64,000 nucleotides of DNA from Escherichia coli. Lineage in GTDB: Bacteria; Pseudomonadota; Gammaproteobacteria; Enterobacterales; Enterobacteriaceae. The notes under the pieces were generated by a model, which worked only from the letters and a program-made list of their open reading frames with translations, was not told the origin of the DNA and made no database searches. The stretch lies in NCBI RefSeq assembly GCF_011045215.1, contig NZ_CP049201.1; one strand, written 5' to 3'. The position numbers were made by a program, and so were the translations under genes. Within the stretch, counting starts at the first letter, position 1. Every line of letters starts with the position of its first letter. This document shows, piece by piece, positions 3,529 through 48,819 of this stretch.

Positions 3529-4980
3529 ATGTCAGCTCAAATCAACAACATCCGCCCGGAATTTGATCGTGAAATCGTTGATATCGTCGATTACGTCATG
3601 AACTACGAAATCAGCTCTAAAGTGGCCTACGACACCGCACATTTCTGCCTGCTCGACACTCTCGGCTGCGGTCTGGAAGCTCTCGAATACCCGGCCTGTA
3701 AAAAACTGCTGGGGCCAGTTGTCCCCGGCACCGTCGTACCTAACGGCGTGCGCGTCCCCGGAACTCAGTTCCAGCTCGACCCCGTCCAGGCGGCATTTAA
3801 CATCGGCGCGATGATCCGCTGGCTCGATTTCAACGATACCTGGCTTGCGGCAGAGTGGGGCCATCCTTCCGACAACCTCGGCGGCATTCTGGCAACGGCG
3901 GACTGGCTTTCACGCAACGCGGTCGCCAGCGGCAAAGCGCCGTTGACCATGAAACAGGTACTGACCGGAATGATTAAAGCTCATGAAATTCAGGGCTGCA
4001 TCGCGCTGGAAAACTCCTTTAACCGCGTCGGCCTCGACCACGTTCTGTTAGTGAAAGTGGCTTCCACCGCCGTGGTCGCCGAAATGCTCGGTCTGACCCG
4101 CGAGGAAATTCTCAATGCCGTTTCGCTGGCGTGGGTGGACGGTCAGTCGCTGCGCACCTATCGCCATGCGCCGAACACCGGCACGCGTAAATCCTGGGCA
4201 GCGGGCGATGCCACTTCCCGCGCGGTACGTCTGGCACTGATGGCGAAAACGGGCGAAATGGGTTATCCGTCAGCCCTGACTGCGCCTGTGTGGGGCTTCT
4301 ACGACGTTTCCTTCAAAGGTGAATCGTTCCGCTTCCAGCGCCCGTACGGTTCTTACGTGATGGAAAATGTGCTGTTCAAAATCTCCTTCCCGGCGGAGTT
4401 CCACTCCCAGACGGCAGTTGAAGCAGCGATGACGCTCTATGAACAGATGCAGGCAGCAGGCAAAACGGCGGCGGATATCGAAAAAGTGACCATTCGCACC
4501 CACGAAGCCTGTATTCGCATCATCGACAAAAAGGGGCCGCTTAATAACCCGGCAGACCGCGACCACTGCATTCAGTACATGGTGGCGATCCCGCTGCTGT
4601 TCGGGCGCTTAACGGCGGCAGATTACGAGGACAACGTTGCGCAAGATAAACGCATCGACGCCCTGCGCGAGAAGATCAATTGCTTTGAAGATCCGGCGTT
4701 TACCGCTGACTACCACGACCCGGAAAAACGCGCCATCGCCAATGCCATTACTCTTGAGTTCACCGACGGCACGCGCTTTGAAGAAGTGGTGGTGGAGTAC
4801 CCCATTGGTCATGCTCGCCGCCGTCAGGATGGCATTCCGAAGCTGGTGGATAAATTCAAAATCAATCTCGCGCGCCAGTTCCCGACTCGCCAGCAGCAGC
4901 GCATTCTGGAGGTTTCTCTCGACAGAGCTCGCCTGGAACAGATGCCGGTCAATGAGTATCTCGACCTGTACGTCATTTAA
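3529..4980 (+). CDS. prpD: 2-methylcitrate dehydratase
   Basis: 483-aa [23 protein letters not shown]..., MmgE/PrpD family. Confidence 0.95.
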
Positions 4981-5019
4981 GCAAACAGCGGTAAGGCGTA
5001 AGTTCAACAGGAGAGCATT

Positions 5020-6906
5020 ATGTCTTTTAGCGAATTTTATCAGCGTTCGATTAACGAACCGGAGCAGTTCTGGGCCGAGCAGGCCCGGCGTATTGACTGG
5101 CAGACGCCCTTTACGCAAACGCTCGATCACAGCAATCCTCCGTTTGCTCGTTGGTTTTGTGAAGGCCGAACCAACTTGTGTCACAACGCTATCGATCGCT
5201 GGCTGGAGAAACAGCCAGAGGCGCTGGCGCTGATTGCCGTCTCTTCGGAAACAGAAGAAGAGCGCACCTTTACCTTTCGTCAGCTGCATGACGAAGTGAA
5301 CGCGGTGGCGTCAATGCTGCGCTCACTGGGCGTGCAGCGTGGCGAACGGGTGCTGGTGTATATGCCGATGATTGCCGAAGCGCATATAACCCTGCTGGCT
5401 TGCGCGCGCATTGGCGCTATTCACTCGGTGGTGTTTGGTGGATTTGCCTCTCATAGCGTGGCGGCGCGAATTGATGATGCTAAACCGGTGCTGATTGTCT
5501 CGGCTGATGCCGGAGCGCGCGGTGGCAAAATCATTCCCTATAAAAAATTGCTCGACGATGCGATAAGTCAGGCGCAGCACCAGCCGCGCCATGTTTTGCT
5601 GGTGGATCGCGGGCTGGCGAAAATGGCGCGCGTCAGCGGGCGGGATGTCGATTTCGCGTCGTTGCGCCATCAACACATCGGCGCGCGGGTACCGGTGGCG
5701 TGGCTGGAATCCAACGAAACCTCCTGCATTCTCTACACCTCCGGCACGACCGGCAAACCTAAAGGCGTGCAGCGCGACGTCGGCGGATATGCGGTGGCGC
5801 TGGCGACCTCGATGGACACCATTTTTGGCGGCAAAGCGGGCGGTGTGTTCTTTTGTGCTTCGGATATCGGCTGGGTGGTGGGGCATTCGTATATCGTCTA
5901 CGCGCCGCTGCTGGCGGGGATGGCGACTATCGTTTACGAAGGATTACCGACCTGGCCGGACTGCGGCGTGTGGTGGAAAATCGTCGAGAAATATCAGGTT
6001 AGCCGGATGTTCTCAGCGCCGACCGCCATTCGCGTGCTGAAAAAATTCCCTACCGCTGAAATTCGCAAACACGATCTCTCGTCGCTGGAAGTACTCTATC
6101 TGGCGGGGGAGCCGCTGGACGAGCCAACCGCCAGTTGGGTAAGCAATACGCTGGATGTGCCGGTTATCGACAACTACTGGCAGACCGAATCCGGCTGGCC
6201 GATTATGGCGATTGCTCGCGGTCTGGACGACAGGCCGACGCGTCTGGGAAGCCCCGGCGTGCCGATGTATGGCTATAACGTGCAGTTGCTTAATGAAGTC
6301 ACCGGCGAACCGTGTGGCGTCAACGAGAAAGGGATGCTGGTGGTGGAAGGGCCGCTGCCGCCGGGCTGTATTCAGACCATCTGGGGCGACGACGACCGCT
6401 TTGTGAAGACTTACTGGTCGCTGTTTTCCCGCCCGGTGTACGCCACCTTTGACTGGGGCATCCGTGACGCTGACGGTTATCACTTTATTCTCGGGCGCAC
6501 TGACGATGTAATTAACGTCGCCGGGCATCGGCTGGGCACGCGCGAGATTGAAGAGAGTATCTCCAGTCATCCGGGCGTTGCCGAAGTGGCGGTGGTTGGG
6601 GTGAAAGATGCGCTGAAAGGGCAGGTGGCGGTGGCGTTTGTCATTCCGAAAGAGAGCGACAGTCTGGAAGACCGCGAGGTGGCGCATTCACAAGAGAACG
6701 CGATTATGGCGCTGGTGGACAGCCAGATTGGCAACTTTGGCCGCCCGGCGCACGTCTGGTTTGTCTCGCAATTGCCAAAAACGCGATCCGGAAAAATGCT
6801 GCGCCGCACGATCCAGGCGATTTGCGAAGGACGCGATCCTGGGGATCTGACGACCATTGATGATCCTGCGTCGTTGGATCAGATCCGCCAGGCGATGGAA
6901 GAGTAA
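5020..6906 (+). CDS. prpE: Propionyl-CoA synthetase
   Basis: 628-aa ORF with an acyl-CoA synthetase AMP-binding motif (YTSGTTGKPKG). Confidence 0.95.
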   Translation: MSFSEFYQRSINEPEQFWAEQARRIDWQTPFTQTLDHSNPPFARWFCEGRTNLCHNAIDRWLEKQPEALALIAVSSETEEERTFTFRQLHDEVNAVASMLRSLGVQRGERVLVYMPMIAEAHITLLACARIGAIHSVVFGGFASHSVAARIDDAKPVLIVSADAGARGGKIIPYKKLLDDAISQAQHQPRHVLLVDRGLAKMARVSGRDVDFASLRHQHIGARVPVAWLESNETSCILYTSGTTGKPKGVQRDVGGYAVALATSMDTIFGGKAGGVFFCASDIGWVVGHSYIVYAPLLAGMATIVYEGLPTWPDCGVWWKIVEKYQVSRMFSAPTAIRVLKKFPTAEIRKHDLSSLEVLYLAGEPLDEPTASWVSNTLDVPVIDNYWQTESGWPIMAIARGLDDRPTRLGSPGVPMYGYNVQLLNEVTGEPCGVNEKGMLVVEGPLPPGCIQTIWGDDDRFVKTYWSLFSRPVYATFDWGIRDADGYHFILGRTDDVINVAGHRLGTREIEESISSHPGVAEVAVVGVKDALKGQVAVAFVIPKESDSLEDREVAHSQENAIMALVDSQIGNFGRPAHVWFVSQLPKTRSGKMLRRTIQAICEGRDPGDLTTIDDPASLDQIRQAMEE

Positions 6907-7987: not shown

Positions 7988-9247
7988 GTGTCGCAAGATA
8001 ACAACTTTAGCCAGGGGCCAGTCCCGCAGTCGGCGCGGAAAGGGGTATTGGCATTGACGTTCGTCATGCTGGGATTAACCTTCTTTTCCGCCAGTATGTG
8101 GACCGGCGGCACTCTCGGAACCGGTCTTAGCTATCATGATTTCTTCCTCGCAGTTCTCATCGGCAACCTTCTCCTCGGTATTTACACTTCATTTCTCGGT
8201 TACATTGGCGCAAAAACCGGCCTGACCACTCATCTTCTTGCTCGCTTCTCGTTTGGTGTTAAAGGCTCATGGCTGCCTTCACTGCTGCTGGGCGGCACCC
8301 AGGTTGGCTGGTTTGGCGTCGGTGTGGCGATGTTTGCTATTCCGGTGGGCAAGGCAACCGGGCTGGATATTAATTTGCTGATTGCCGTTTCCGGTTTACT
8401 GATGACCGTCACCGTCTTCTTTGGCATTTCGGCGCTGACAGTTCTTTCGGTGATTGCGGTTCCGGCGATCGCCTGTCTTGGCGGTTATTCCGTGTGGCTG
8501 GCCGTTAACGGCATGGGCGGCCTGGACGCCTTAAAAGCGGTCGTTCCCGCACAACCATTAGATTTCAATGTCGCGCTGGCGCTGGTTGTGGGGTCATTTA
8601 TCAGTGCGGGTACGCTCACCGCCGACTTTGTCCGGTTTGGTCGCAATGCCAAACTGGCGGTGCTGGTGGCGATGGTGGCCTTTTTCCTCGGCAACTCGTT
8701 GATGTTTATTTTCGGTGCAGCGGGCGCTGCGGCACTGGGGATGGCGGATATCTCTGATGTGATGATTGCTCAGGGCCTGCTGTTGCCTGCGATTGTGGTG
8801 CTGGGGCTAAATATCTGGACCACCAACGATAACGCGCTCTATGCGTCGGGTTTAGGTTTCGCCAACATTACCGGGATGTCGAGCAAAACCCTTTCGGTAA
8901 TCAACGGTATTATCGGTACGGTCTGCGCATTATGGCTGTATAACAATTTTGTCGGCTGGTTGACCTTCCTTTCGGCAGCTATTCCTCCGGTGGGTGGCGT
9001 GATCATTGCCGACTATCTGATGAACCGTCGCCGCTATGAGCACTTTGCGACCACGCGTATGATGAGTATCAATTGGGTGGCGATTCTGGCGGTCGCCTTG
9101 GGGATTGCTGCAGGCCACTGGTTACCGGGAATTGTTCCGGTCAACGCGGTATTAGGTGGCGCGCTGAGCTATCTGATCCTTAACCCGATTTTGAATCGTA
9201 AAACGACAGCAGCAATGACGCATGTGGAGGCTAACAGTGTCGAATAA
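7988..9247 (+). CDS. codB: Cytosine permease (NCS1 family)
   Basis: 419-aa ORF starting at a [22 protein letters not shown]..., multi-pass membrane protein. Confidence 0.93.
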
Positions 9248-10520
9248 CGCTTTACAAACAATTATTAACGCCCGGTTACCAGGCGAAGAGGGGCTGTGGC
9301 AGATTCATCTGCAGGACGGAAAAATCAGCGCCATTGATGCGCAATCCGGCGTGATGCCCATAACTGAAAACAGCCTGGATGCCGAACAAGGTTTAGTTAT
9401 ACCGCCGTTTGTGGAGCCACATATTCACCTGGACACCACGCAAACCGCCGGACAACCGAACTGGAATCAGTCCGGCACGCTGTTTGAAGGCATTGAACGC
9501 TGGGCCGAGCGCAAAGCGTTATTAACCCATGACGATGTGAAACAACGCGCATGGCAAACGCTGAAATGGCAGATTGCCAACGGCATTCAGCATGTGCGTA
9601 CCCATGTCGATGTTTCGGATGCAACGCTAACTGCGCTGAAAGCAATGCTGGAAGTGAAGCAGGAAGTCGCGCCGTGGATTGATCTGCAAATCGTCGCCTT
9701 CCCTCAGGAAGGGATTTTGTCGTATCCCAACGGTGAAGCGTTGCTGGAAGAGGCGTTACGCTTAGGGGCAGATGTAGTGGGGGCGATTCCGCATTTTGAA
9801 TTTACCCGTGAATACGGCGTGGAGTCGCTGCATAAAACCTTCGCCCTGGCGCAAAAATACGACCGTCTCATCGACGTTCACTGTGATGAGATCGATGACG
9901 AGCAGTCGCGCTTTGTCGAAACCGTTGCTGCCCTGGCGCACCATGAAGGCATGGGCGCGCGAGTCACCGCCAGCCACACCACGGCAATGCACTCCTATAA
10001 CGGGGCGTATACCTCACGCCTGTTCCGCTTGCTGAAAATGTCCGGTATTAACTTTGTCGCCAATCCGCTGGTCAATATTCATCTGCAAGGACGTTTCGAT
10101 ACGTATCCAAAACGTCGCGGCATCACGCGCGTTAAAGAGATGCTGGAGTCCGGCATTAACGTCTGCTTTGGTCACGATGATGTCTTCGATCCGTGGTATC
10201 CGCTGGGAACGGCGAATATGCTGCAAGTGCTGCATATGGGGCTGCATGTGTGTCAGTTGATGGGTTACGGGCAGATTAACGATGGTCTGAATTTGATCAC
10301 CTACCACAGCGCCAGAACGTTGAATTTGCAGGATTACGGCATTGCCACCGGAAACAGCGCCAACCTGATTATCCTGCCGGCTGAAAATGGATTTGATGCG
10401 CTGCGCCGTCAGGTTCCGGTACGTTATTCGGTACGTGGCGGCAAGGTGATTGCCAGCACACAACCGGCACAAACCACCGTATATCTGGAGCAGCCGGAAG
10501 CCATCGATTACAAACGGTGA
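9237..10520 (+). CDS. codA: Cytosine deaminase
   Basis: Start placed at the GTG at 9237 ([19 protein letters not shown]...), overlapping the codB 3' end; 427 aa. The ORF track starts 15 nt upstream. Confidence 0.9.
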
Positions 10521-16093: not shown

Positions 16094-19206
<3,113 letters not shown>

Positions 19207-19212
19207 TCACAC

Positions 19213-19242
19213 AACATACGAGTCGGACGCATAAAGTGTAAA
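19213..19242 (-). promoter_or_regulatory. lac promoter P1 (-10 TATGTT and -35 TTTACA, 18-bp spacer)
   Basis: Plus-strand aacata at 19213-19218 is the -10 and tgtaaa at 19237-19242 is the -35. The spacer has two substitutions relative to the familiar K-12 sequence. Confidence 0.85.
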
Positions 19243-19244
19243 GC

Positions 19245-19268
19245 CTGGGGTGCCTAATGAGTGAGCTG
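19245..19268 (-). promoter_or_regulatory. CRP (CAP) binding site of the lac promoter
   Basis: taatgagtgagctgactcacatta retains the TGTGA...TCACA half-sites, with one central change from the K-12 site. Confidence 0.85.
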
Positions 19269-19290
19269 ACTCACATTAATTGCGTTGCGC

Positions 19291-20373
19291 TCACTGCCCG
19301 CTTTCCAGTCGGGAAACTTGTCGTGCCAGCTGCATTAATGAATCGGCCAACGCGCGGGGAGAGGCGGTTTGCGTCTTGGGCGCCAGGGTGGTTTTTCTTT
19401 TCACCAGAGAGACGGGCAAAAGCTGATTGCCCTTCACCGCCAGGCCCTGAGAGAGTTGCAGCAAGCGGTCCACGCTGGTTTGCCCCAGCAGGCGAAAATC
19501 CTGTTTGATGGTGGTTAACGGCGGGATATAACACGAGCTGTCTTCGGTATCGTCGTATCCCACTACCGAGATATCCGCACCAACGCGCAACCCGGACTCG
19601 GTAATGGCGCGCATTGCGCCCAGCGCCATCTGATCGTTGGCAACCAGCATCGCAGTGGGAACGATGCCCTCATTTAGCATTTGCATGGTTTGTTGAAAAC
19701 CGGACATGGCACTCCAGTCGCCCTCCCGTTCCGCTATCGGCTGAATTTGATTGCGAGTGAGATATTTATGCCAGCCCGCCAGACGCAGACGCGCCGAGAC
19801 AGAACTTAATGGGCCCGCTAACAGCGCGATTTGCTGGTGACCCAATGCGACCAGATGCTCCACGCCCAGTCGCGTACCGTCTTCATGGGAGAAAATAATA
19901 CTGTTGATGGGAGTCTGGTCAGAGACATCAAGAAATAACGCCGGAACATTAGCGCAGGCAGCTTCCACAGCAATGGCATCCTGGTCATCCAGCGGATAGT
20001 TAATGATCAGCCCACTGACGCGTTGCGCGAGAAGATTGTGCACCGCCGCTTTACAGGCTTCGACGCCGCTTCGTTCTACCATCGACACCACCACGCTGGC
20101 ACCCAGTTGATCGGCGCGAGATTTAATCGCCGCGACAATTTGCGACGGCGCGTGCAGGGCCAGACTGGAGGTGGCAACGCCAATCAGCAACGACTGTTTC
20201 CCCGCCAGTTGTTGTGCCACGCGGTTGGGAATGTAATTCAGCTCCGCCATCGCCGCTTCCACTTTTTCCCGCGTTTTCGCAGAAACGTGGCTGGCCTGAT
20301 TCACCACGCGGGAAACGGTCTGATAAGAGACACCGGCATACTCTGCGACATCGTATAGCGTTACTGGTTTCAC
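19291..20373 (-). CDS. lacI: Lactose operon repressor
   Basis: GTG start giving VKPVTLYDVAEYAGVSYQTVSRVVNQASHVSAKTREKVEAAMAELNYIPNR..., 360 aa. The ORF track begins 3 codons upstream. Confidence 0.95.
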   Translation of the reverse strand: MKPVTLYDVAEYAGVSYQTVSRVVNQASHVSAKTREKVEAAMAELNYIPNRVAQQLAGKQSLLIGVATSSLALHAPSQIVAAIKSRADQLGASVVVSMVERSGVEACKAAVHNLLAQRVSGLIINYPLDDQDAIAVEAACANVPALFLDVSDQTPINSIIFSHEDGTRLGVEHLVALGHQQIALLAGPLSSVSARLRLAGWHKYLTRNQIQPIAEREGDWSAMSGFQQTMQMLNEGIVPTAMLVANDQMALGAMRAITESGLRVGADISVVGYDDTEDSSCYIPPLTTIKQDFRLLGQTSVDRLLQLSQGLAVKGNQLLPVSLVKRKTTLAPKTQTASPRALADSLMQLARQVSRLESGQ

Positions 20374-20449
20374 ATTCACCACCCTGAATTGACTCTCTTC
20401 CGGGCGCTATCATGCCATACCGCGAAAGGTTTTGCGCCATTCGATGGTG

Positions 20450-27789: not shown

Positions 27790-28135
<346 letters not shown>

Positions 28136-31125: not shown

Positions 31126-32265
<1,140 letters not shown>

Positions 32266-32269
32266 TCAG

Positions 32270-32545
32270 CTATTTAAGATAGGCACGAACCAGTTCAATA
32301 GTGTCGTCAACGGATTGGCTGACTTCGCGGCTGTAGCAGTCATTTCGGTCAAACGTTTCCCGGATATGGCTTTCAAGCACTTCTGCCATCAGCCCATTAG
32401 CCGCGCCCCGAACGGCAGCGATCTGTTGGAGTATGGCACGGCATTCGGCATCACCCTCCAGCGACCGTTCCAGAGCATCAATCTGCCCTCGAATACGACG
32501 AACTCGAGTAAGGACCTTTTTCTTCTCTTCCGGAGTACTGGGCAT
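32270..32545 (-). CDS. frmR: Formaldehyde-responsive repressor FrmR (CsoR/RcnR family)
   Basis: Protein [48 protein letters not shown]..., 91 aa. The ORF track starts 7 codons upstream. Confidence 0.9.
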
Positions 32546-32570
32546 TTCGCACCTCATCATCTGCATGCAA

Positions 32571-32622
32571 TATACTATAGGGGGGTATGCTATATGTCAA
32601 TGCATACCCCCCTATAGTATAT
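32571..32622 (-). promoter_or_regulatory. frmRAB promoter/operator: long G/C-tract inverted repeat
   Basis: atactataggggggtatgc ... gcatacccccctatagtat forms a near-perfect palindrome immediately upstream of frmR. Confidence 0.7.
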
Positions 32623-32704
32623 AACACTGGAGAATAATTGTTGTCCGAAGCCTAACCAGGCGAACGGTCCCTCAAGACAGATGGGGACCGTTTATGTGCT
32701 ATTT

Positions 32705-33751
32705 TTATGCCGCATCCGCTAAAACAAACATCCCGTAAGGATGGATTTCGAGGTAATAGTGCTCACCAATATCGGGCTGTAAACGGGTGGCGTTTACTTG
32801 TAATAAAATCTCCTGTCCATGCCACTCTACGGTCACTTCGTACTGCGGCCCCATGTAGGCGACATGGCGAATAACACAACGCTGACTCTCTTCGCCGTGA
32901 TTGCTTAAGGTGATGGCTTCCGGGCGAACGCCGACGGTGCCGCTACCTTGCGCCGGGAAATGCGCCGCGCGCGGCAGGCGATAACCGTAGATATCGACAT
33001 ACTCTTCGCTAAAGTTCGCCGGGAACAGGTTGGCGTCGCCCATAAAACTTGCCATAAATCGGGAGGCTGGCTGACGATAGAGATCCTGCGGTGAGCCAAT
33101 CTGCATGATGTGACCTTTATTCATCACCAGCACAGTGTCGGACACCGCGAAAGCTTCACTTTGATCGTGAGTGACGTAGAGCGACGTGATATTAAACTGC
33201 TTTTGCAGCTCGCGGATCTTATCGCGCATACTGCGGCGCAGGTTGGCATCGAGGTTACTTAACGGCTCATCAAACAGCAGCACCTTTGGCTTGAGGATCA
33301 ACGCGCGGGCCAGTGCCACACGCTGTTGCTGACCACCGGAAATCTGATCGACATAGCGGTCCTCGAAGCCTTCCAGATCCACCATTGCCAGCGCCTCCTT
33401 CACCCGCTGTTTCACTTCGCTACGCGACACGCCAAGCATCTTCAGCCCGTAGCCAACGTTTTCACCCAGCGACATATGCGGGAACAGAGCGTATGACTGA
33501 AACACCATGCAGATATCGCGCTGTTGAATGGAACGATGCGTGACATCTTCGCCATCAATAAAAATTTGCCCTTCGCTCGGTTTTTCCAGCCCGGCAACCA
33601 GACGCAAAATGGTGGTTTTGCCACAGCCGGAAGGACCGAGCAGCGTCACCATTTGCCCTTGTGGAATGGTGAGATTGATATTGTCGATAACCGTATTACT
33701 GCCGAATCGTTTAGTGACGTTGCGCAGTTCAACAAAATTTTTCTGACTCAT
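32705..33751 (-). CDS. afuC: ABC transporter ATP-binding subunit, AfuC/FbpC-type, with a C-terminal TOBE-like domain
   Basis: Walker [13 protein letters not shown] signature [15 protein letters not shown], Walker [12 protein letters not shown]. Start chosen at the second ATG ([12 protein letters not shown]...), which has a GGAG Shine-Dalgarno sequence; the ORF-track ATG at 33763 overlaps the afuB stop as TAATG. Confidence 0.85.
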
Positions 33752-33762
33752 AGTGCGCTCCA

Positions 33763-35841
33763 TTACGCCTGGTTTTTGGCTTTAGAACGGGAGATACGAG
33801 CTTCTCCGATCAGCCAGTCAAAGAGGAAAATAATCGCCAGCATCACCACGATCAGAATCGAACCATAGGCGATGGCTACGCCATATTCGCCGTCTTCAAC
33901 GCGGTTAAGAATGTAGGCGGTTGCCACGCGGGTGTCCGGCGTGACGAGAAAGACGATGGCGCTGACCGTCGTGATGGCCCGCACAAAGCTGTAGATCAGG
34001 GCCGAGAGAATGGCCGGACGCAGCAGCGGCAGTAAAATGTGGGTTATGGTTCGCAAGGAACCCGCGCGCAGGCTGAGTGAGGCTTCATCCAGCGATTTGT
34101 CGATCTGCCCCAGACCCGCAATCCCGGCGCGAATACCCACCGGAACGTTACGCATCACCATCGAGATAATCACAATTGCCGCCGTTCCGGTGAGATAAAC
34201 CGGAGCGCTGTTAAAGGCAAGAATATACGAAACGCCCGCCACCGTACCCGGTACGGCAAAGCACAGCATGGTGGTGAACTCGATGGTCTTTTTGCCTTTG
34301 AATTGTTGACGCACCACCACCCAGGCGATGAGCAGGCCAAAGATAGCGGTAATGGGAGCGGCAATCCCGGCGTAGAGCAGGGTATCCAGCAGTGAAGGCC
34401 ACGCGCCGTCGCTCATTCCCTGACCAAATAGCTTGATAAAGTTATCCAGCGTCAGGGTGTAGTCCACGCCCCAGTTCACCGTGAAGCTGCCGTAGAAAAT
34501 GCTGCCGTAGAGCAGGGCGTTAAAGGCAATCCATATCGCAAGTATGGCGACCACGCTCCACACCAGGGTGACCGGTAGCGGCTGGACGTCGCCACGGTAG
34601 GATTTGCCGGAAACCGTGACGTAAGAGCGTTTACCAATCCACATATACTGGATGCAGAACACCAGCAGCGAGAACAGCAGCAGGAAAGCGCCAAGGGTGC
34701 TGGCGGCCTGATAATCCAGCTGCGAGCCGGTAATATAGAAGTAAATTTGCGTCGCCAGTACGTCGAAGTTACCGCCAAGTACCAGCGGGTTACTGAAATC
34801 AGCCAGTGACTGTACCACGACGATTAAAAAGGCATTGGCGAGTGCGGGCTTTAGCAACGGCACAAACACGCCGTTAAAGGTTTGCCAGCGGCTGGCGCGC
34901 AGGGTGTAGGAGGCCTCTTCCAGCGAGGGATGAATGGTTTTAATGGCCCCGTCGAGGATCATAAATGCCATTGGCGTGAATGCCAGAACCTGTGCCAGCC
35001 AGATCCCGGTAAAACCGTACAGCCAGTTGGTGTTGGTCAGCCCAAACCACTCCACCATAAATTCCGTAACATAGCCGGAGCGCCCCATCATGAGCGTCAC
35101 GCCTAAGCCGACCACAAACGGTGGCGTAACGATGGGCAAAATGGAAAAGATGCGACCAATAATGGCGCTGCGTTTAGCGATGCGCGTGGTATAAATCGCC
35201 AGCACCAGGCCGAAGAAAGTACAGCCTATCCCCACCGCTATCGACAAGACGATAGAGTTGACGATCACCTGAACAATATGTGCCTGCGAGAGCACGGTCA
35301 TAAACGCCAGCGGGGCGAACTCTCCCGCGTCGTTGGTGAACATCGGGATAAAAATGGCGATGCTCGGCCAGACGATAAAAATGCCAATCAGCGCCACAAT
35401 CGCAATCAGTGAGCCGATCACGAAGCGGTCGCCGCCCAGCCATTCGAGGCGGGTTAAGGCCAGCGTCATAATCGCGCCTAGTTCAACAAACAGCACGATG
35501 GCGGCGTAGCCTAAACCGCGTCCAGCCACGGTGGCGCTGATGACGATAAACGCCATACAGAGCAATGCCCAGCTGGCATCAAAATAATGACGACTACGCT
35601 GTTCGCGTGTGACCTCACGAAACGGGCGAACCAGCAACAGACTCGGTAACAAATACCACAGCCAGCTGATATTAAAATGCGACCAGCCATAAGCCTCGAG
35701 GATCTCATCACTCGTGGACTCCAGCAGGCCATAATCGAGGCTCCAGCTCGGCAACAGTATAAATGCCAGCCAGCCCAGCAAAACCCAAAGGAAAATCGCA
35801 TCCCGCTTTTTCACGGGATGGAGTGCAAGTGTCTGTGACAT
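33763..35841 (-). CDS. afuB: ABC transporter permease, fused two-domain FbpB/AfuB type
   Basis: About 692 aa and highly hydrophobic, with duplicated permease halves. Start taken at the ATG giving [14 protein letters not shown]...; the ORF-track start at 35892 is a TTG. Confidence 0.8.
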
Positions 35842-35909
35842 AGCAGTTCCGGTATGGTTGGCCGGGGCAGGCGTTTGTGCTGCACCCGGCAAATACGCCT
35901 AATGCGGGT

Positions 35910-36941
35910 TTATTTACCCATCTTCACTTCGCTGACCCATTTATTAATCAATGCCTTACGAACATCCGTGGAACCATATTTATCCATGTCGTAGTTGATT
36001 AATTTCAGGTCGTCGAGCTTCAGCGAATTTGGCGACGTTTCGGCGGTGGTATTGGTCAGGATCTGATAAGACTTCCCTTTCTTCCACGCCAGTTCCTGAG
36101 CTTCTTTTGATAATACCCAGTCCACAAACAGTTTGGCGTTGTCGAGGTTGCGCGCGCCTTTCAGAATGCTGACGCCGCCAATTTCGTAGCCCGTACCTTC
36201 ACACGGGGAAATCAACTCCAGCGGCGCGCCCTGTTCTTTTTCCAGCGAGTAGTCATGCAGGAAGCCAATACCAATCGCCGTTTCGCCACGGGCGGCGTTA
36301 CGTGCCGGGGCTATGCCTGATTTGGTGTACTGAGAGACGTTGGCGTTCAGTTGTTTTAGATAATCAAAGGCCTGATCTTCCCCCCACAGCTGCGCAAAAG
36401 TAGCCAGGGCGGTGTAGGCAGTACCGGAACTTTGCGGATCGGCAATTTGAATTTCGCCTTTATATTCCGGTTTGGTGAGATCTTTCCAGCACTTCGGCAC
36501 CGGCAGGTTTTTCTCTTTCAGACGATCGGTGTTTACGCCAAAACCGAGGATCCCCACATAAACGGCAGAGGACAGATTCCCTTTCACTTTTGCCGGATCG
36601 CGGAATTTCTCCATGATCTGCTCAAGGTTAGGGGATTTATACGCCTGTAGCAGGCCCATCTCGCCAGCCTGCGATTGCGGGTCTAAAGTGCCGCCGTACC
36701 AGACGTCAGCCTGGGGGTTTTTCTTTTCAGCATCGACTTTTGCCAGGGTGCTTCCGGAACCGTTGCGGATAAACGAGGTTTTTACATCATATTTCTCGCC
36801 AAACGCTTTGGTTTCGGCCTCACACATTTCATTGGTGGCGCTGCAATAGACCACCAGCCGGCCTTTTGCCTGCGCGGCACCCGTTAAAGTCGCCAGCGCA
36901 ACGGCAGAAGCAATCAGAGTAGAGGTAAAGGTCATTTTCAT
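35910..36941 (-). CDS. afuA: Periplasmic substrate-binding protein, AfuA-type (sugar-phosphate/ferric-binding fold family)
   Basis: Start at the ATG at 36941-36939, preceded by AAGGA, giving MKMTFTSTLIASAVALATLTGAAQA-KGR... with a clear signal peptide; 343 aa. The ORF track extends 109 codons upstream with no support. Confidence 0.85.
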   Translation of the reverse strand: MKMTFTSTLIASAVALATLTGAAQAKGRLVVYCSATNEMCEAETKAFGEKYDVKTSFIRNGSGSTLAKVDAEKKNPQADVWYGGTLDPQSQAGEMGLLQAYKSPNLEQIMEKFRDPAKVKGNLSSAVYVGILGFGVNTDRLKEKNLPVPKCWKDLTKPEYKGEIQIADPQSSGTAYTALATFAQLWGEDQAFDYLKQLNANVSQYTKSGIAPARNAARGETAIGIGFLHDYSLEKEQGAPLELISPCEGTGYEIGGVSILKGARNLDNAKLFVDWVLSKEAQELAWKKGKSYQILTNTTAETSPNSLKLDDLKLINYDMDKYGSTDVRKALINKWVSEVKMGK

Positions 36942-38242
36942 TGTTTTATCCTTCGAGCGTGAGTGGTGGTGATGCCCGCCATCAGTAACGGCATCAGCAG
37001 TAAACCCATAAGTACTGCGGCGACCGAGAGTAAACTGAACATTCCCGGCCAGCCGTAGCGTTCGATGACCAGCGACAGCGGCCAGCCTGCCAGCGCCGCG
37101 CCAAGGTAAGCGAACAGGCCGAGAAATCCGGTGATTGAACCCGCCGCAGCTTTGTGCCCACACTCCACCGCCGCAAGTCCAATCAGCATTTGTGGGCCAA
37201 AGACGAAAAAGCCCACGGTAAAAAAGCACACTGCCAGCAGAGCGTAGTGATGAACCGGTGCCAGCCACAGTGCGGCGACTGACACCATCAACCCCAACGT
37301 GAACAGCAAAATCATTGGCGCTCGTTGCCCGCTAAACAGCAAATCCGATCCCCATCCGGCAAATAACGCGCCGAGTAAGCCGCCCACTTCAAACAGCATT
37401 ACCGTGGCGTTGGCGCTGAGCAGGTTGACACCGTGGCTTTCCGTCAGCCAGATATTGCCCCAGTCGTTAAGCGCAATCCGGATCACATAAACCAGTACAT
37501 AAGAGACGCCCAGTAGCCAGATCAGCGGATTTTGCAGCATGGTGGTGCGCAACATTTGCCACAGCCCCATCGGCGGACTTTGTTGTTCCTGACGTAACTC
37601 CAGCGGATCGTGACGCCAGTGACCAACTGTCGGTAATCCCTCTTCCTGGGGCGTGCCTTTGAGTTGTAGCGTTAACCAGATCCCTAATGCCATGCTGATT
37701 ATCCCCGGTGTCAGCATCGCGGCCTGCCAGCCCCACCAGTGGGCGGCAAAGGCGCTAATCAGCGGAATAATCGCTCCGCCAATGTTGATCGACATATTCC
37801 AGCAGCCCCACCAGAAACCGCGCTCATTGCGTGAGTACCAGTGGGTCAGCAAGCGGGCACACGGTGGCCATCCCCAGCCCTGAAAAAAACCGTTCAGTGT
37901 CCAGACCACAAGCAGAAGCGTAAGTGATTCGCCAAAGGCAAACACCACGTTCAATAACCCGGTGGCGAACAAGCCGACGCCCATAAAACCGCGTTGTCCG
38001 TGGCTGTCATGCCACAGTCCGGCGGTAAATTTCGACAATCCGTAGCTGAGATAAAACAGCGAACCCAGCAGGCCAATGTCGCCTTTATCCAGTCCGAGGT
38101 CGGTTTGTAGCGCCGGAAGGACGTAATTCACGCTTTTTCGCGTCAGATAAAATGCGGCGTAGCCAATAATCATGCACATCAGCAATCGCGGACGTAATGT
38201 CCGGTAGCATTGATTAATTTCTCTCGCTGAACGCGCGTGCAT
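36938..38242 (-). CDS. MFS organophosphate:phosphate antiporter-family protein, UhpC-like (probable sugar-phosphate sensor)
   Basis: About 434 aa with UhpC/UhpT-like sequence (...YAAFYLTRKSVNYVLPALQTDLGL...). Its TGA stop overlaps the afuA ATG (ATGA). Start probably at the second ATG (GGAGA Shine-Dalgarno); 38254 is the alternative. Confidence 0.8.
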   Translation of the reverse strand: MHARSAREINQCYRTLRPRLLMCMIIGYAAFYLTRKSVNYVLPALQTDLGLDKGDIGLLGSLFYLSYGLSKFTAGLWHDSHGQRGFMGVGLFATGLLNVVFAFGESLTLLLVVWTLNGFFQGWGWPPCARLLTHWYSRNERGFWWGCWNMSINIGGAIIPLISAFAAHWWGWQAAMLTPGIISMALGIWLTLQLKGTPQEEGLPTVGHWRHDPLELRQEQQSPPMGLWQMLRTTMLQNPLIWLLGVSYVLVYVIRIALNDWGNIWLTESHGVNLLSANATVMLFEVGGLLGALFAGWGSDLLFSGQRAPMILLFTLGLMVSVAALWLAPVHHYALLAVCFFTVGFFVFGPQMLIGLAAVECGHKAAAGSITGFLGLFAYLGAALAGWPLSLVIERYGWPGMFSLLSVAAVLMGLLLMPLLMAGITTTHARRIKQ

Positions 38243-38326
38243 GGTTGTCTCCATGTTGCTGACTATATGAAAATGAAAGTGAAAGGGGATGAGAGAAAAT
38301 CCGGGATACCTAAGACTTTTTCCTGG

Positions 38327-39868
38327 TTATCCGGCGATTTGTTGCAAAAATGTGGGCAAGTTAACAATTACCCGCGTGCCGTGCTGTTTTTCGAGCGTTA
38401 AGTCGCCGCCCAGGGCGCTGACGCGCTCACGCATCCCCTGAATGCCAAATCCGGCCATTTTCCCGCTGGCGATCCCCACACCGTTGTCGCTGACTTCCAG
38501 ATGCAATACCTCTCCCTGCTGGCGCAGGATAATCGTCACTTCGCTGGCTTCGGCGTGTTTACAGATGTTATTGAGCAACTCCTGCAATAACCGATACAAG
38601 GTAAAGCGCACCGTTTCGTTTTCTGGTGTGGAGTTCAGTTGATAGGCAAACTGGCAATGAATGCCGCGTTCACTAAAGGCAAATTCATTAATCAGATGCA
38701 ACAACGCTTCGCGAAATGTCAGTTCATCAAGCGCGGGAGGCCGCAACTGGCGTAGCAATTGGCGGGTGGAGAGATGAATGCGGCGGGCGAGCTCATTGAT
38801 TTGGCTGGCTGCGGATTGAATTTGCGCCGGATCACGCGCCCGCTTCACCAGTTGCGACTGGATCTGAATGGCGGTGATGTTCTGACCGATTTCGTCGTGC
38901 AGCTCTCGCGCCAGGTTTTTTCGCGTGTCCTCCTCGGTGTGGATCAGCTTTTCCGCCAATGCCCGCCGCGCTGCCAGCTCGGCCTCCAGCCGTTGTCGGT
39001 AATGGTGCAGGTTTAGCGCCAGATGTTGCTGGCGACTGATGGCAATGCCCAGGCCAATTCCCAGCAAGGCCTGGGTCGCGAGGAAAATCTCCAGCTCCAC
39101 CAGGTTACTAAAGCCCACGCCAATCTGGCGGGCGATGGTGATCATCATGCTGCCCAAAAGCCCGGAGAGTACGCCACCTTGCCAGCCAAATTTCCACGCC
39201 ATCACCACATTGGGCAAAAAGACCACGATCAACAGCAGACGTTCAATTTCAGGTGACAGCACCATCTGAGTGCCGATACCAATAATAAAAAACAGGCTAC
39301 ACCAGATGATTAAAGAGGTACGCAAGGGGGGATTATGCGTATCGAGTCCCAGGAGCTGGTAGCGATGCTGCTGGCGCAGAAACTCAAAGATAAGATAGAC
39401 AAACGGCGTCAGTAATACGCCGCCGGTAAATGAGGTCAAACCCGGCAGCATTATTGGGCCCGACATAAAAGGGGAGAGCAGGGCGGTATTCAACAATGAA
39501 GCTGCCGTGACAGTGGCTAACAGCAACGTCAGACGCTGCCAGTAAAGTGGAAAACGGTGCCAGAAGTTTTGCGCAAGGAGGACAGGAAACAGGCTAATAA
39601 CCGGCGTTGCCAGCATGAGATAACCGTTCAATAGCTGTTCACTATGGAGCCAGAACATCATCAGCAAAGGGGGGAGCACCAACGCAGGCCAGTAGCGGCG
39701 AGAGAGCAAAATAACAAGGGCGAGATAAACTCCCTGAGGGAGAAACAACACTGCCTGTTGACCGTTATTGGTCAGATAAAAGCTGAGCGTCCACAGCATC
39801 AGCCAGCCGGTTCCCCAGGCCAGCACAATAAACAGCGAAATCACCCAATGACGAAGATTGCGCGACAT
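38327..39868 (-). CDS. Membrane sensor histidine kinase, UhpB-like (MASE1 N-terminal domain, HisKA_3, HATPase)
   Basis: 513 aa with about 8 N-terminal transmembrane helices, an H-box RELHDEIGQNITAIQ, and ATPase motifs DNGVGI...GFGIQGMRERV. Confidence 0.85.
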   Translation of the reverse strand: MSRNLRHWVISLFIVLAWGTGWLMLWTLSFYLTNNGQQAVLFLPQGVYLALVILLSRRYWPALVLPPLLMMFWLHSEQLLNGYLMLATPVISLFPVLLAQNFWHRFPLYWQRLTLLLATVTAASLLNTALLSPFMSGPIMLPGLTSFTGGVLLTPFVYLIFEFLRQQHRYQLLGLDTHNPPLRTSLIIWCSLFFIIGIGTQMVLSPEIERLLLIVVFLPNVVMAWKFGWQGGVLSGLLGSMMITIARQIGVGFSNLVELEIFLATQALLGIGLGIAISRQQHLALNLHHYRQRLEAELAARRALAEKLIHTEEDTRKNLARELHDEIGQNITAIQIQSQLVKRARDPAQIQSAASQINELARRIHLSTRQLLRQLRPPALDELTFREALLHLINEFAFSERGIHCQFAYQLNSTPENETVRFTLYRLLQELLNNICKHAEASEVTIILRQQGEVLHLEVSDNGVGIASGKMAGFGIQGMRERVSALGGDLTLEKQHGTRVIVNLPTFLQQIAG

Positions 39869-40497
39869 TAATGCCCCGCCAGCAGATGGTGGTCGAGCGC
39901 AAAATGTACCAGTTCAATGGTGCTATGGCAGTTCAGTTTTCCCAGCACATTGGCGCGATGCACATGTACCGTTTTATGACTGAGTTCGAGTTTAAAGGCG
40001 ATCTCTTTAACGCTGTCTCCTTTGACCAGTAAATCAAACACTTCACGTTCTCGTGGGGTGAGAATTTCTAGCGCCTGGGCGGGTTGCCCGCCGCCGCGTA
40101 AAGCCCGAATCGCATCGGCACAGAGATAATGCCCGCCCAGCCCGACCGAGCGCACCGCCTGTACTAACTCTTCCGGCCCACAGCGTTTGGTTAAATACCC
40201 GCTGGCACCAGCATCCAGCGCGCTTTGCACAAAGGTTGGCGCGTCATAAATGCTAAGAATAATGGCGCGAAATTGCGGTTTTTGTGCACGCAGGCGCTTA
40301 AGCAAACTGAGGCCGTTTTCGTCCGGCATGGCAATATCAATGACGGCAACATTGACGTCATCACGGATTAATGCCGACCATGCCTGCGCGGCACTACTGT
40401 ACTGACCAATGACCTCCAGATCGTCTTCCAGAGAGAGTAATTGTGCGAAGCCAGAGCGCACCACCACATGGTCATCCACCAGCACTACCCGAATCAT
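39868..40497 (-). CDS. Response regulator, UhpA-like (NarL/LuxR family)
   Basis: 209 aa, MIRVVLVDDHVVVRSGFAQLL... receiver domain plus a C-terminal LuxR HTH (TPREREVFDLLVKGDSVKEIAFKLELSHKTVHVHRANVLGKL). Its TAA stop overlaps the kinase ATG (TAATG). Confidence 0.85.
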   Translation of the reverse strand: MIRVVLVDDHVVVRSGFAQLLSLEDDLEVIGQYSSAAQAWSALIRDDVNVAVIDIAMPDENGLSLLKRLRAQKPQFRAIILSIYDAPTFVQSALDAGASGYLTKRCGPEELVQAVRSVGLGGHYLCADAIRALRGGGQPAQALEILTPREREVFDLLVKGDSVKEIAFKLELSHKTVHVHRANVLGKLNCHSTIELVHFALDHHLLAGH

Positions 40498-40799
40498 ACT
40501 TTTCTTCTCTTATTATCTAATTCTCCTATCATGCATCACGGCGCGGCGCTGGCAATCAACCAGCGACAGATATGGAATGGATGTAACAAAATGGCAATAA
40601 TTTGCCGGAGCGCACACATCTTATCTGGCTTGTGAACCGGCGGGATACGTTCGCCAAAACCGCAAAATGCGCAAACTCGCTAACCATTGCCGATTTTTTT
40701 CTAAAAACGCTTTGTTCTTAACAAGACCTTTTAATTCCTTTATCAAACTGACCCGCAACGAAATACTGCTCCCATAACAAGACAGGGGAGCAGACAATC

Positions 40800-41762
40800 A
40801 TGGCAATTTCATCGCGTAACACTCTTCTTGCCGCACTGGCATTCATCGCTTTTCAGGCGCAGGCGGTGAACGTCACCGTGGCGTATCAAACCTCAGCCGA
40901 ACCGGCGAAAGTGGCTCAGGCTGATAACACCTTTGCCAAAGAGAGCGGGGCGAACGTGGACTGGCGCAAGTTTGACAGCGGAGCCAGCATCGTGCGGGCG
41001 CTGGCTTCAGGCGATGTGCAAATCGGCAACCTCGGTTCCAGCCCGTTAGCGGTTGCAGCCAGCCAACAGGTGCCGATTGAAGTCTTCTTGCTGGCGTCAA
41101 AACTGGGTAACTCCGAAGCGCTGGTGGTAAAGAAAACTATCAGCAAACCCGAGGATCTGATTGGCAAACGCATCGCAGTGCCGTTTATCTCCACCACCCA
41201 CTACAGCCTGCTGGCGGCGCTGAAACACTGGGGCATTAAACCCGGGCAAGTGGAGATTGTGAACCTGCAGCCGCCCGCGATTATCGCTGCCTGGCAGCGG
41301 GGAGATATTGATGGTGCTTATGTCTGGGCACCGGCGGTTAACGCCCTGGAAAAAGACGGCAAGGTGTTGACCGATTCTGAACAGGTCGGGCAGTGGGGCG
41401 CGCCAACGCTGGACGTTTGGGTGGTGCGCAAAGATTTTGCCGAGAAACATCCTGAGGTCGTGAAAGCGTTCGCTAAAAGCGCCATCGATGCTCAGCAACC
41501 GTACATTGCTAACCCAGACGTGTGGCTGAAACAGCCGGAAAACATCAGCAAACTGGCGCGTTTAAGCGGCGTGCCTGAAGGTGACGTTCCGGGGCTGGTG
41601 AAGGGGAATACCTATCTGACGCCGCAGCAACAAACGGCAGAACTGACCGGACCGGTGAACAAAGCGATCATCGACACCGCGCAGTTTTTGAAAGAGCAGG
41701 GCAAGGTCCCGGCTGTAGCGAATGATTACAGCCAGTACGTTACCTCGCGCTTCGTGCAATAA
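40800..41762 (+). CDS. tauA: Taurine ABC transporter periplasmic binding protein
   Basis: 320-aa ORF with a signal peptide, MAISSRNTLLAALAFIAFQAQA... Confidence 0.93.
   Translation: MAISSRNTLLAALAFIAFQAQAVNVTVAYQTSAEPAKVAQADNTFAKESGANVDWRKFDSGASIVRALASGDVQIGNLGSSPLAVAASQQVPIEVFLLASKLGNSEALVVKKTISKPEDLIGKRIAVPFISTTHYSLLAALKHWGIKPGQVEIVNLQPPAIIAAWQRGDIDGAYVWAPAVNALEKDGKVLTDSEQVGQWGAPTLDVWVVRKDFAEKHPEVVKAFAKSAIDAQQPYIANPDVWLKQPENISKLARLSGVPEGDVPGLVKGNTYLTPQQQTAELTGPVNKAIIDTAQFLKEQGKVPAVANDYSQYVTSRFVQ

Positions 41763-45819: not shown

Positions 45820-48819
<3,000 letters not shown>

Follow-up and report, generated by a model that had tools for sequence, protein, structure and literature searches.

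The AfuABC importer, an ATP-binding cassette (ABC) system, takes up the 6-phosphates of glucose and fructose as well as sedoheptulose-7-phosphate, as crystallographic and calorimetric work and the complementation of a uhpT mutant established, with binding and transport demonstrated for the proteins of Actinobacillus pleuropneumoniae and Citrobacter rodentium (Sit 2015, PMC4546632). In Escherichia coli EDL933 the afu genes belong to O-island 20, where Z0458-Z0460 are afuCBA, Z0461 encodes a major facilitator superfamily (MFS) protein and Z0462/Z0463 encode FusK and FusR (PMC4546632, PMC6199705). The literature treats FusKR, associated with fucose and the LEE (locus of enterocyte effacement), and AfuABC, associated with sugar phosphates, as separate neighbours (PMC4546632, PMC11644481); the remark in Sit 2015 (PMC4546632) that afuABC lies near the 'fucose-sensing' FusKR goes no further. 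Here we analyse a 64-kb stretch of E. coli DNA (hereafter the window) that carries all six genes, and compare it with these systems and with UhpABC-UhpT of K-12. On balance, we favour the reading that fusR-fusK-z0461-afuABC is a second, Uhp-type hexose-phosphate system, encoded by an old and widespread six-gene cassette.

The ORF (open reading frame) content of the window includes six intact, co-oriented genes on the minus strand at 32705-40497, with the limits that an earlier sequence-only reading had assigned to them. The same six genes stand in the same order between frmR and tauA in strain Sakai (ECs_0413-0418), with proteins that are 99.0-100% identical. The block is O-island 20 of E. coli O157:H7, an already known locus, and the window shares its genes, their order and their insertion point. 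The island DNA of the window differs in being 99.0% identical to the O157:H7 copies and 99.8% identical to that of a chicken isolate, so the window strain is not O157:H7. The locus, the substrates of the importer and the architecture are already in the literature, and the discovery is a minor one; what is added here is comparative and promoter evidence linking the sensor and importer halves. The sequence-only reading had interpreted the block as a self-contained module for sensing and importing sugar phosphates. The parts of this interpretation that can be checked in sequence hold, but the locus is a known one, and its kinase and regulator are described in print as a fucose sensor, FusKR, not unambiguously as a sensor of sugar phosphates.

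The first three genes had been likened to uhpABC, and profile searches agree, giving UhpA, UhpB and UhpC as the top matches rather than any unrelated two-component family. The regulator is a UhpA-like member of the NarL/FixJ family, with a REC domain and a LuxR-type helix-turn-helix, and is 48% identical to K-12 UhpA and 99.5% identical to Sakai ECs_0418. It keeps the phospho-acceptor Asp54, and its recognition helix, KTVHVHRAN, is identical to that of UhpA and is also kept by the regulators of Vibrio and Photobacterium. The kinase combines MASE1 (E 5e-60), HisKA_3 and HATPase_c domains in Pfam, keeps the His box ELHDEIGQ and is 35% identical to K-12 UhpB and 99.6% identical to its Sakai counterpart. 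The MFS protein scores 585.8 bits against the NCBIfam UhpC model (NF008661), above the cut-off of 564, and 213.7 bits against the UhpT model; it is 53% identical to K-12 UhpC, 29% identical to UhpT and 100% identical to the Sakai protein. Its residues R35, K71 and R255 are the equivalents of UhpT R46, K82 and R275, so that the arginine pair used by organophosphate carriers for the phosphate group is kept, and it has the UhpC-type Thr/Leu at the positions of UhpT D388 and K391. These features make Z0461 a probable organophosphate receptor; in the literature on enterohaemorrhagic E. coli (EHEC) it goes by the name of fucose transporter (PMC6199705, PMC11644481, PMC4810492). No uhpT-like gene is found in the window, where tblastn with UhpT matches the UhpC-like gene alone (30%); as first proposed, an Afu-type ABC importer follows the triad in its place.

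The importer half is equally well marked. The gene order of afuA, a fused double permease afuB and the ATPase gene afuC is that of an AfuABC-type importer operon. The best PDB matches of AfuA are 8x1a (E 1.7e-173) and the A. pleuropneumoniae AfuA structures 4r72-4r75 (E 1.5e-169), and His229, Asp230 and Glu253 align with H205, D206 and E229 (A. pleuropneumoniae numbering), the sugar-coordinating residues named by Sit 2015 (PMC4546632). The paralogue P5PA (6wce), which binds pyridoxal-phosphate, has His-Ala...Ala there and differs from AfuA at two of the three positions. AfuB consists of two permease halves of the binding-protein-dependent type in NCBIfam, is 99.0% identical to the Sakai protein and is colinear in all loci; AfuC scores 699.6 bits against PRK11432, above the NCBIfam cut-off of 496, and is 99.7% identical to the Sakai protein. 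The likeness to the A. pleuropneumoniae and C. rodentium systems extends from an AfuA that matches the crystallised protein very closely and keeps the binding residues to the AfuB and AfuC genes that follow. Together with the transport data of Sit 2015, the kept ligand residues support the assignment of the window AfuABC as a sugar-phosphate importer, and the earlier statement that an enteric homologue imports hexose and heptose phosphates is correct (PMC4546632).

The Pasteurellaceae operon differs from the window in standing alone, without the triad. At the Gallibacterium anatis locus (L094, 8001-13118) afuABC has no Uhp-like genes beside it, and an acid phosphatase gene comes after afuC. 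A metagenomic contig of Pasteurellaceae type (L087, 3550-5781) likewise has afuABC without Uhp-like genes, with two tandem genes for AfuA-like binding proteins.

We next consider how far the six-gene architecture extends. A scan for AfuA with one genome per species gives relatives in 348 species, and the locus comparisons that follow use the best 80 loci. These are all from Enterobacterales, with AfuA 85-99% identical, and in every one of them with enough flanking DNA the order regulator-kinase-MFS-AfuA-AfuB-AfuC is colinear. Identity among the 80 falls as low as 72% for the regulator, 55% for the kinase and 67% for the MFS protein. No separate UhpT gene is present in any of the 80, the ABC importer standing in its place. 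In the Citrobacter youngae ATCC 29220 locus (L018) the UhpC-like gene (8706-10001) has a premature stop that closes its frame at 9014, and its five neighbours appear to be intact; this copy may be a pseudogene or reflect a sequencing error.

A search that starts from the sequence of PDB 8x1a reaches further, to Vibrio (three 50%-identity representatives of AfuA, P0121, P0123 and P0125, gave paralogue loci or short contigs and were uninformative on Vibrio). The V. metoecus/V. cholerae cluster, which adjoins napABC, and that of Photobacterium have the same six genes in the same order with the same Pfam content, and their proteins are 42-76% identical to those of the window. The V. cholerae cluster, VCA0682-VCA0687, reportedly characterised by Moisi in 2013 as a system for hexose-6-phosphate, matches the window in its order of response regulator, histidine kinase, MFS protein, substrate-binding protein, permease and ATPase and in the palindrome that stands ahead of the MFS gene; it differs in the gap between the MFS gene and afuA, which is 112 nt in Vibrio and a 4-nt overlap in the window. 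Its UhpA homologue, VCA0682, is said to be required for induction of the ABC genes by hexose-6-phosphate, according to work by Moisi in 2013. We know of no separate UhpT in Vibrio, whereas E. coli has both systems, the cassette and UhpT. The ABC part of the V. cholerae cluster has been reported as a system that takes up hexose-6-phosphate (PMC4101255).

The gap between the kinase and MFS genes contains a candidate regulated promoter. It is ~85-110 bp long in nearly all loci, and an alignment of 77 distinct gap sequences from 78 loci has five conserved blocks: a 17-bp palindrome, CGGAcTTT, an invariant TCTCATCC, a TATAGT -10 box and a GGAGA ribosome-binding site. The palindrome has the consensus CYAGGAAnnnTTCCTRG, the perfect form CCAGGAAnnnTTCCTGG and, in E. 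coli, the form CCAGGAAAAAGTCTTAG, which in the window lies 42 nt upstream of the -10 box. With up to 2 mismatches it has one sole match in the window, ahead of the MFS gene. Across the loci, 77 of the 80 have CYAGGAANNNTTCCTRG, with no more than 2 mismatches, in the 140 nt that precede the MFS gene, compared with 5 matches in the remaining 1.51 Mb; in Vibrio and Photobacterium, perfect copies of the palindrome occupy this same place. In K-12, the DNA between uhpC and uhpT contains CTAAGAAATTTTCCAGG, 2 mismatches from the consensus and 43 nt upstream of the -10 sequence TACAAT. The palindrome is thus shared with the K-12 uhpT promoter at a matching distance from the -10 box, and we regard it as a candidate UhpA-type site. 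It occupies approximately -72 to -56, with its centre near -64; in the uhpT promoter the corresponding position presumably falls inside the strong UhpA site. That promoter has been described as having a strong UhpA site upstream and a weak one downstream (review). A generic scan of the window for sigma-70 promoters and terminators does not call the MFS promoter and finds no more sites than in shuffled sequence; the promoter is missed on account of its poor -35, as expected of an activator-dependent promoter.

Downstream of this promoter the sensor and importer genes are tightly packed. In the window the afuA start and the MFS stop overlap by 4 nt (ATGA), and the MFS-afuA spacing is between -4 and +60 nt in 77 of the 80 measured loci, the exceptions being two Yersinia loci (~160 nt) and the C. 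youngae copy with the premature stop. Such an overlap or tiny gap makes the sensor gene and the importer genes one unit. RNA-seq of EDL933 in bovine gut contents has z0461, afuB and fusK up together (supplement of PMC6199705).

The comparison with K-12 UhpABC-UhpT can now be drawn as a whole. Both loci have the same three regulatory families in the same order, an overlapping regulator/kinase junction (1 nt between kinase start and regulator stop in the window), an identical recognition helix and the 17-bp palindrome ahead of the -10 box from which the transporter genes would be expressed. They differ in sequence, the three proteins being 35-53% identical and the regulator and kinase scoring under the equivalog cut-offs for UhpA and UhpB, and in output, which in the window is an ATP-driven ABC importer and not the phosphate antiporter UhpT. 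They differ also in that the regulated promoter lies between uhpC and uhpT in K-12, and the candidate one upstream of the UhpC-like gene in the window, which would place the sensor gene inside the induced operon.

Taken together, the six-gene colinearity, the MFS-afuA packing and the UhpA-box-like palindrome lend real, if partial, support to the proposed wiring. In this mechanism the UhpC-type Z0461 would bind external sugar phosphate and switch the MASE1 kinase FusK, the UhpB-like partner, into its kinase state; FusK would then phosphorylate the UhpA-like FusR. [quoted passage not shown] We infer the binding of FusR to the palindrome, the activation and the identity of sugar phosphate as the signal in E. 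coli. The control of the LEE by FusR and the fucose response reported for EHEC may be lineage-specific additions to the output or input.

Within E. coli, 518 of the 5426 complete genomes have the whole cassette, in line with the earlier view that the block is strain-variable, and its reported position between frmR and tauA, with different genes there in K-12, is also confirmed. Megablast against K-12 positions 376000-390000 shows that homology stops at window position 32637 and restarts at 40762, and K-12 has yaiO-yaiX::IS2-yaiP-ykiC-yaiS at this site instead of the cassette. The K-12-type yaiP-yaiS segment is found in 4811 of the genomes, which makes the two near-exclusive alternatives at the frmR-tauA site, and uhpT is found in 5406, which makes the cassette an additional system. 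Carriers among the matches, sampled across their spread, include strains of O157:H7, O145 and O111:H8 together with chicken, pig, calf and human isolates, and the urinary-tract isolate EC1515 also carries the cassette. Copies are at least 99% identical to the window in 395 records, 95-99% in 56 and 90-95% in 68. This wider distribution contradicts the statement of a review that FusKR is restricted to O157:H7 (PMC11644481).

In ~30 species from no fewer than nine further genera of Enterobacteriaceae (Citrobacter, Klebsiella, Raoultella, Enterobacter, Leclercia, Lelliottia, Silvania, Huaxiibacter and Intestinirhabdus) the cassette divergently adjoins tauA-tauB, as it does in the window. The tau genes lie upstream of the regulator gene, at ~4400-6200 in loci within the series L005-L061; frmR as the other neighbour is specific to E. 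coli. These observations suggest that the site adjacent to tauAB is the old position of the cassette, lost or replaced in most E. coli. A review has proposed acquisition 'possibly from E. faecalis' (PMC4810492), an origin we set aside in view of the tauAB neighbourhood in other genera, a GC content of the variable segment (0.51-0.57) that is similar to its flanks, and its lack of mobility genes, of which none is found within 32638-40761.

Further copies lie at other sites. Strain TOE17 (NZ_CP069093.1; L085, 3501-11293) has a complete six-gene copy, 94.3% identical, at another chromosomal site. This copy lies between genes for lactate utilisation and ula genes, with a tyrosine integrase gene and an IS66 fragment at its flanks, so the cassette is also carried as one piece by a mobile island. 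In a K-12 MG1655 genome (NZ_CP025268.1, 276809-278214; L086, 5001-6406) the CP4-6 region keeps afuC/fbpC intact, together with the 3' end of an afuB that IS1 has truncated. This remnant of a second cassette copy is 85.7% identical to window positions 32705-34111, and nearly all of the ~458 records in the 80-90% identity band are partial matches of this CP4-6 type.

Several points weigh against a Uhp-type hexose-phosphate system. Although UhpA and UhpB are their top NCBIfam matches, the regulator (193 bits, cut-off 258) and the kinase (381.7 bits, cut-off 408) both fall under the equivalog cut-offs for these proteins. Over the whole promoter, K-12 uhpT and the window agree at 31 of 80 positions, a figure matched in 765 of 20000 shuffles and also reached at 669 other window positions; this likeness is not above chance, and we therefore set overall similarity aside and use only the palindrome with its position and conservation. 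The published FusR site at ler has at least 6 mismatches to the palindrome and does not resemble it, a comparison that by itself favours neither side. FusK alone in liposomes reportedly showed no response to glucose-6-phosphate in the work of Pacheco in 2012. Ligand detection in the Uhp system falls to UhpC, not to UhpB (review), so a test of FusK alone would not exclude signalling through Z0461. Summaries of published work describe FusK as autophosphorylating on fucose and FusR as repressing the fuc genes as well as ler and z0461 (PMC11644481, PMC6199705), and in a 2026 study the fucose-dependent repression of the LEE requires fusKR (PMC12976359). The searchable literature contains no experiment that ties FusR to afuABC in E. 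coli and, besides Sit 2015, no paper that joins afuA with uhpC or FusK with UhpB.

One way to accommodate both bodies of data is to suppose that FusKR was originally, and perhaps still is mainly, the kinase and regulator of a Uhp-like hexose-phosphate sensor that needs Z0461 as its receptor. Its primary regulon would then be z0461-afuABC, with the effects on fucose and the LEE secondary or indirect, and the two Uhp-type systems of strains with O-island 20 might cross-regulate uhpT and afuABC, because the regulator has the recognition helix and the box of UhpA. We put this forward tentatively, as a possibility that falls somewhat short of being probable.

The published model may instead be the whole story: FusK would sense L-fucose directly, FusR would repress ler, z0461 and fuc, Z0461 would be a fucose transporter, afuABC would be shut down whenever the system is active, and the likeness to Uhp would be a matter of ancestry. 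Summaries of Pacheco 2012 describe such a model (PMC11644481, PMC4810492, PMC6199705), the genetic requirement for fusKR when fucose represses the LEE agrees with it (PMC12976359), and so do the sub-threshold scores of the regulator and kinase. However, Z0461 passes the UhpC cut-off and keeps the organophosphate-carrier arginines, for which a fucose carrier has no need, and the cassette is kept together with AfuABC in at least 80 species of Enterobacterales and in Vibrionaceae. Most of these cassette-bearing species, to our knowledge, have no LEE. The promoter has an activator-dependent layout, with a poor -35 and the palindrome near -64 as in uhpT, and the FusR footprint at ler is unlike that conserved palindrome. 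We therefore consider it unlikely that the fucose model is a full account.

Less likely still, and in our view improbable, is that the triad and afuABC are neighbours without a regulatory link, afuABC being expressed by read-through or under other factors (CRP, Fur, PhoB) and the triad having its targets elsewhere. The lack of a direct E. coli experiment in the searchable literature leaves room for this, and the Pasteurellaceae operons without Uhp-like genes indicate that other regulation can serve the importer. In 77 of the 80 measured loci, nevertheless, the MFS gene and afuA overlap (ATGA) or are parted by a tiny gap, which makes separate control of afuABC unlikely, and the six-gene colinearity persists across deep divergence. 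The sole strongly conserved non-coding element lies directly upstream of MFS-afuABC and is palindromic, as expected for a regulator of the NarL/FixJ type; the reported need for the UhpA homologue in V. cholerae also speaks for a link. That the cassette is a decaying remnant, found in a minority of E. coli strains and redundant with UhpT, would fit its 518 genomes against 5406 with uhpT, the truncated afuB-afuC elsewhere in K-12 and the premature stop in one Citrobacter copy, but is highly improbable given six intact ORFs with proteins 99-100% identical to Sakai, a C. rodentium afuA mutant that colonises and transmits poorly (Sit 2015, PMC4546632) and genes that are transcribed and regulated in EDL933 (PMC6199705).

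If FusK/FusR and Z0461 sense hexose phosphates and activate z0461-afuABC in E. coli, about 1 in 10 sequenced E. coli strains would have a second route, driven by ATP, by which hexose and heptose phosphates enter the cell, with its own Uhp-like sensor and independent of UhpT. The strains concerned would include O157:H7, O145 and O111 as well as avian, porcine and urinary isolates. Such a route would bear on gut colonisation, in which the C. rodentium afuA mutant is impaired, on the behaviour of uhpT mutants on sugar phosphates and on the understanding of FusKR, which is now a therapeutic target with fucose.

The coordinates of the locus are collected in the table. A mechanically called MFS start at 38254 was set aside, as it would overlap the Shine-Dalgarno sequence, and a 452-aa GTG ORF for afuA is an artefact of ORF calling. 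An Rfam scan of window positions 32000-41200 gives no match.

Table. Coordinates of the six-gene cassette and of the elements in its kinase-MFS gap, in window numbering
Feature	Position	Strand	Remarks
Response regulator FusR / Z0463 / ECs_0418	39868-40497	-	209 aa
Sensor histidine kinase FusK / Z0462 / ECs_0417	38327-39868	-	513 aa
UhpC-type MFS protein Z0461 / ECs_0416	36938-38242	-	434 aa, conserved start
AfuA Z0460 / ECs_0415, periplasmic sugar-phosphate-binding protein	35910-36941	-	343 aa
AfuB Z0459 / ECs_0414, fused double-domain ABC permease	33763-35841	-	692 aa
AfuC (FbpC) Z0458 / ECs_0413, ABC ATPase	32705-33751	-	348 aa
Kinase-MFS gap, candidate regulated promoter of the MFS-afuABC operon	38243-38326	-	84 bp
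Palindrome CCAGGAAAAAGTCTTAG (E. coli form)	38326-38310	-	kinase-MFS gap
CCCGGA	38305-38300	-	kinase-MFS gap
Invariant TCTCATCC	38294-38287	-	kinase-MFS gap
-10 box TATAGT	38267-38262	-	kinase-MFS gap
Shine-Dalgarno GGAGA	38252-38248	-	kinase-MFS gap
Whole variable segment relative to K-12	32638-40761		8124 bp; megablast

Elsewhere in the window, we note extra intergenic DNA between mhpE and mhpT (27826-28089) that is missing from Sakai and EC1515. The K-12 DNA that separates yaiL from frmB resembles it at 86-88% in the inverted orientation, and it is probably a dispersed intergenic repeat. Positions 45900-47356, inside the ehaB/yaiT autotransporter adhesin gene, give no megablast alignment to Sakai and probably represent a divergent passenger domain; in EC1515 the ehaB/yaiT gene is cut short, with an IS3-family element after it. 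Genes for a GlxA-family regulator and a metallo-beta-lactamase-fold hydrolase lie between lacI and mhpR (~18500-20400, by correspondence with locus L096, 5781-7530), and the pair matches Sakai ECs_0399/0400. In K-12, lacI presumably adjoins mhpR directly, and on that assumed order the insert would be another small variable segment.

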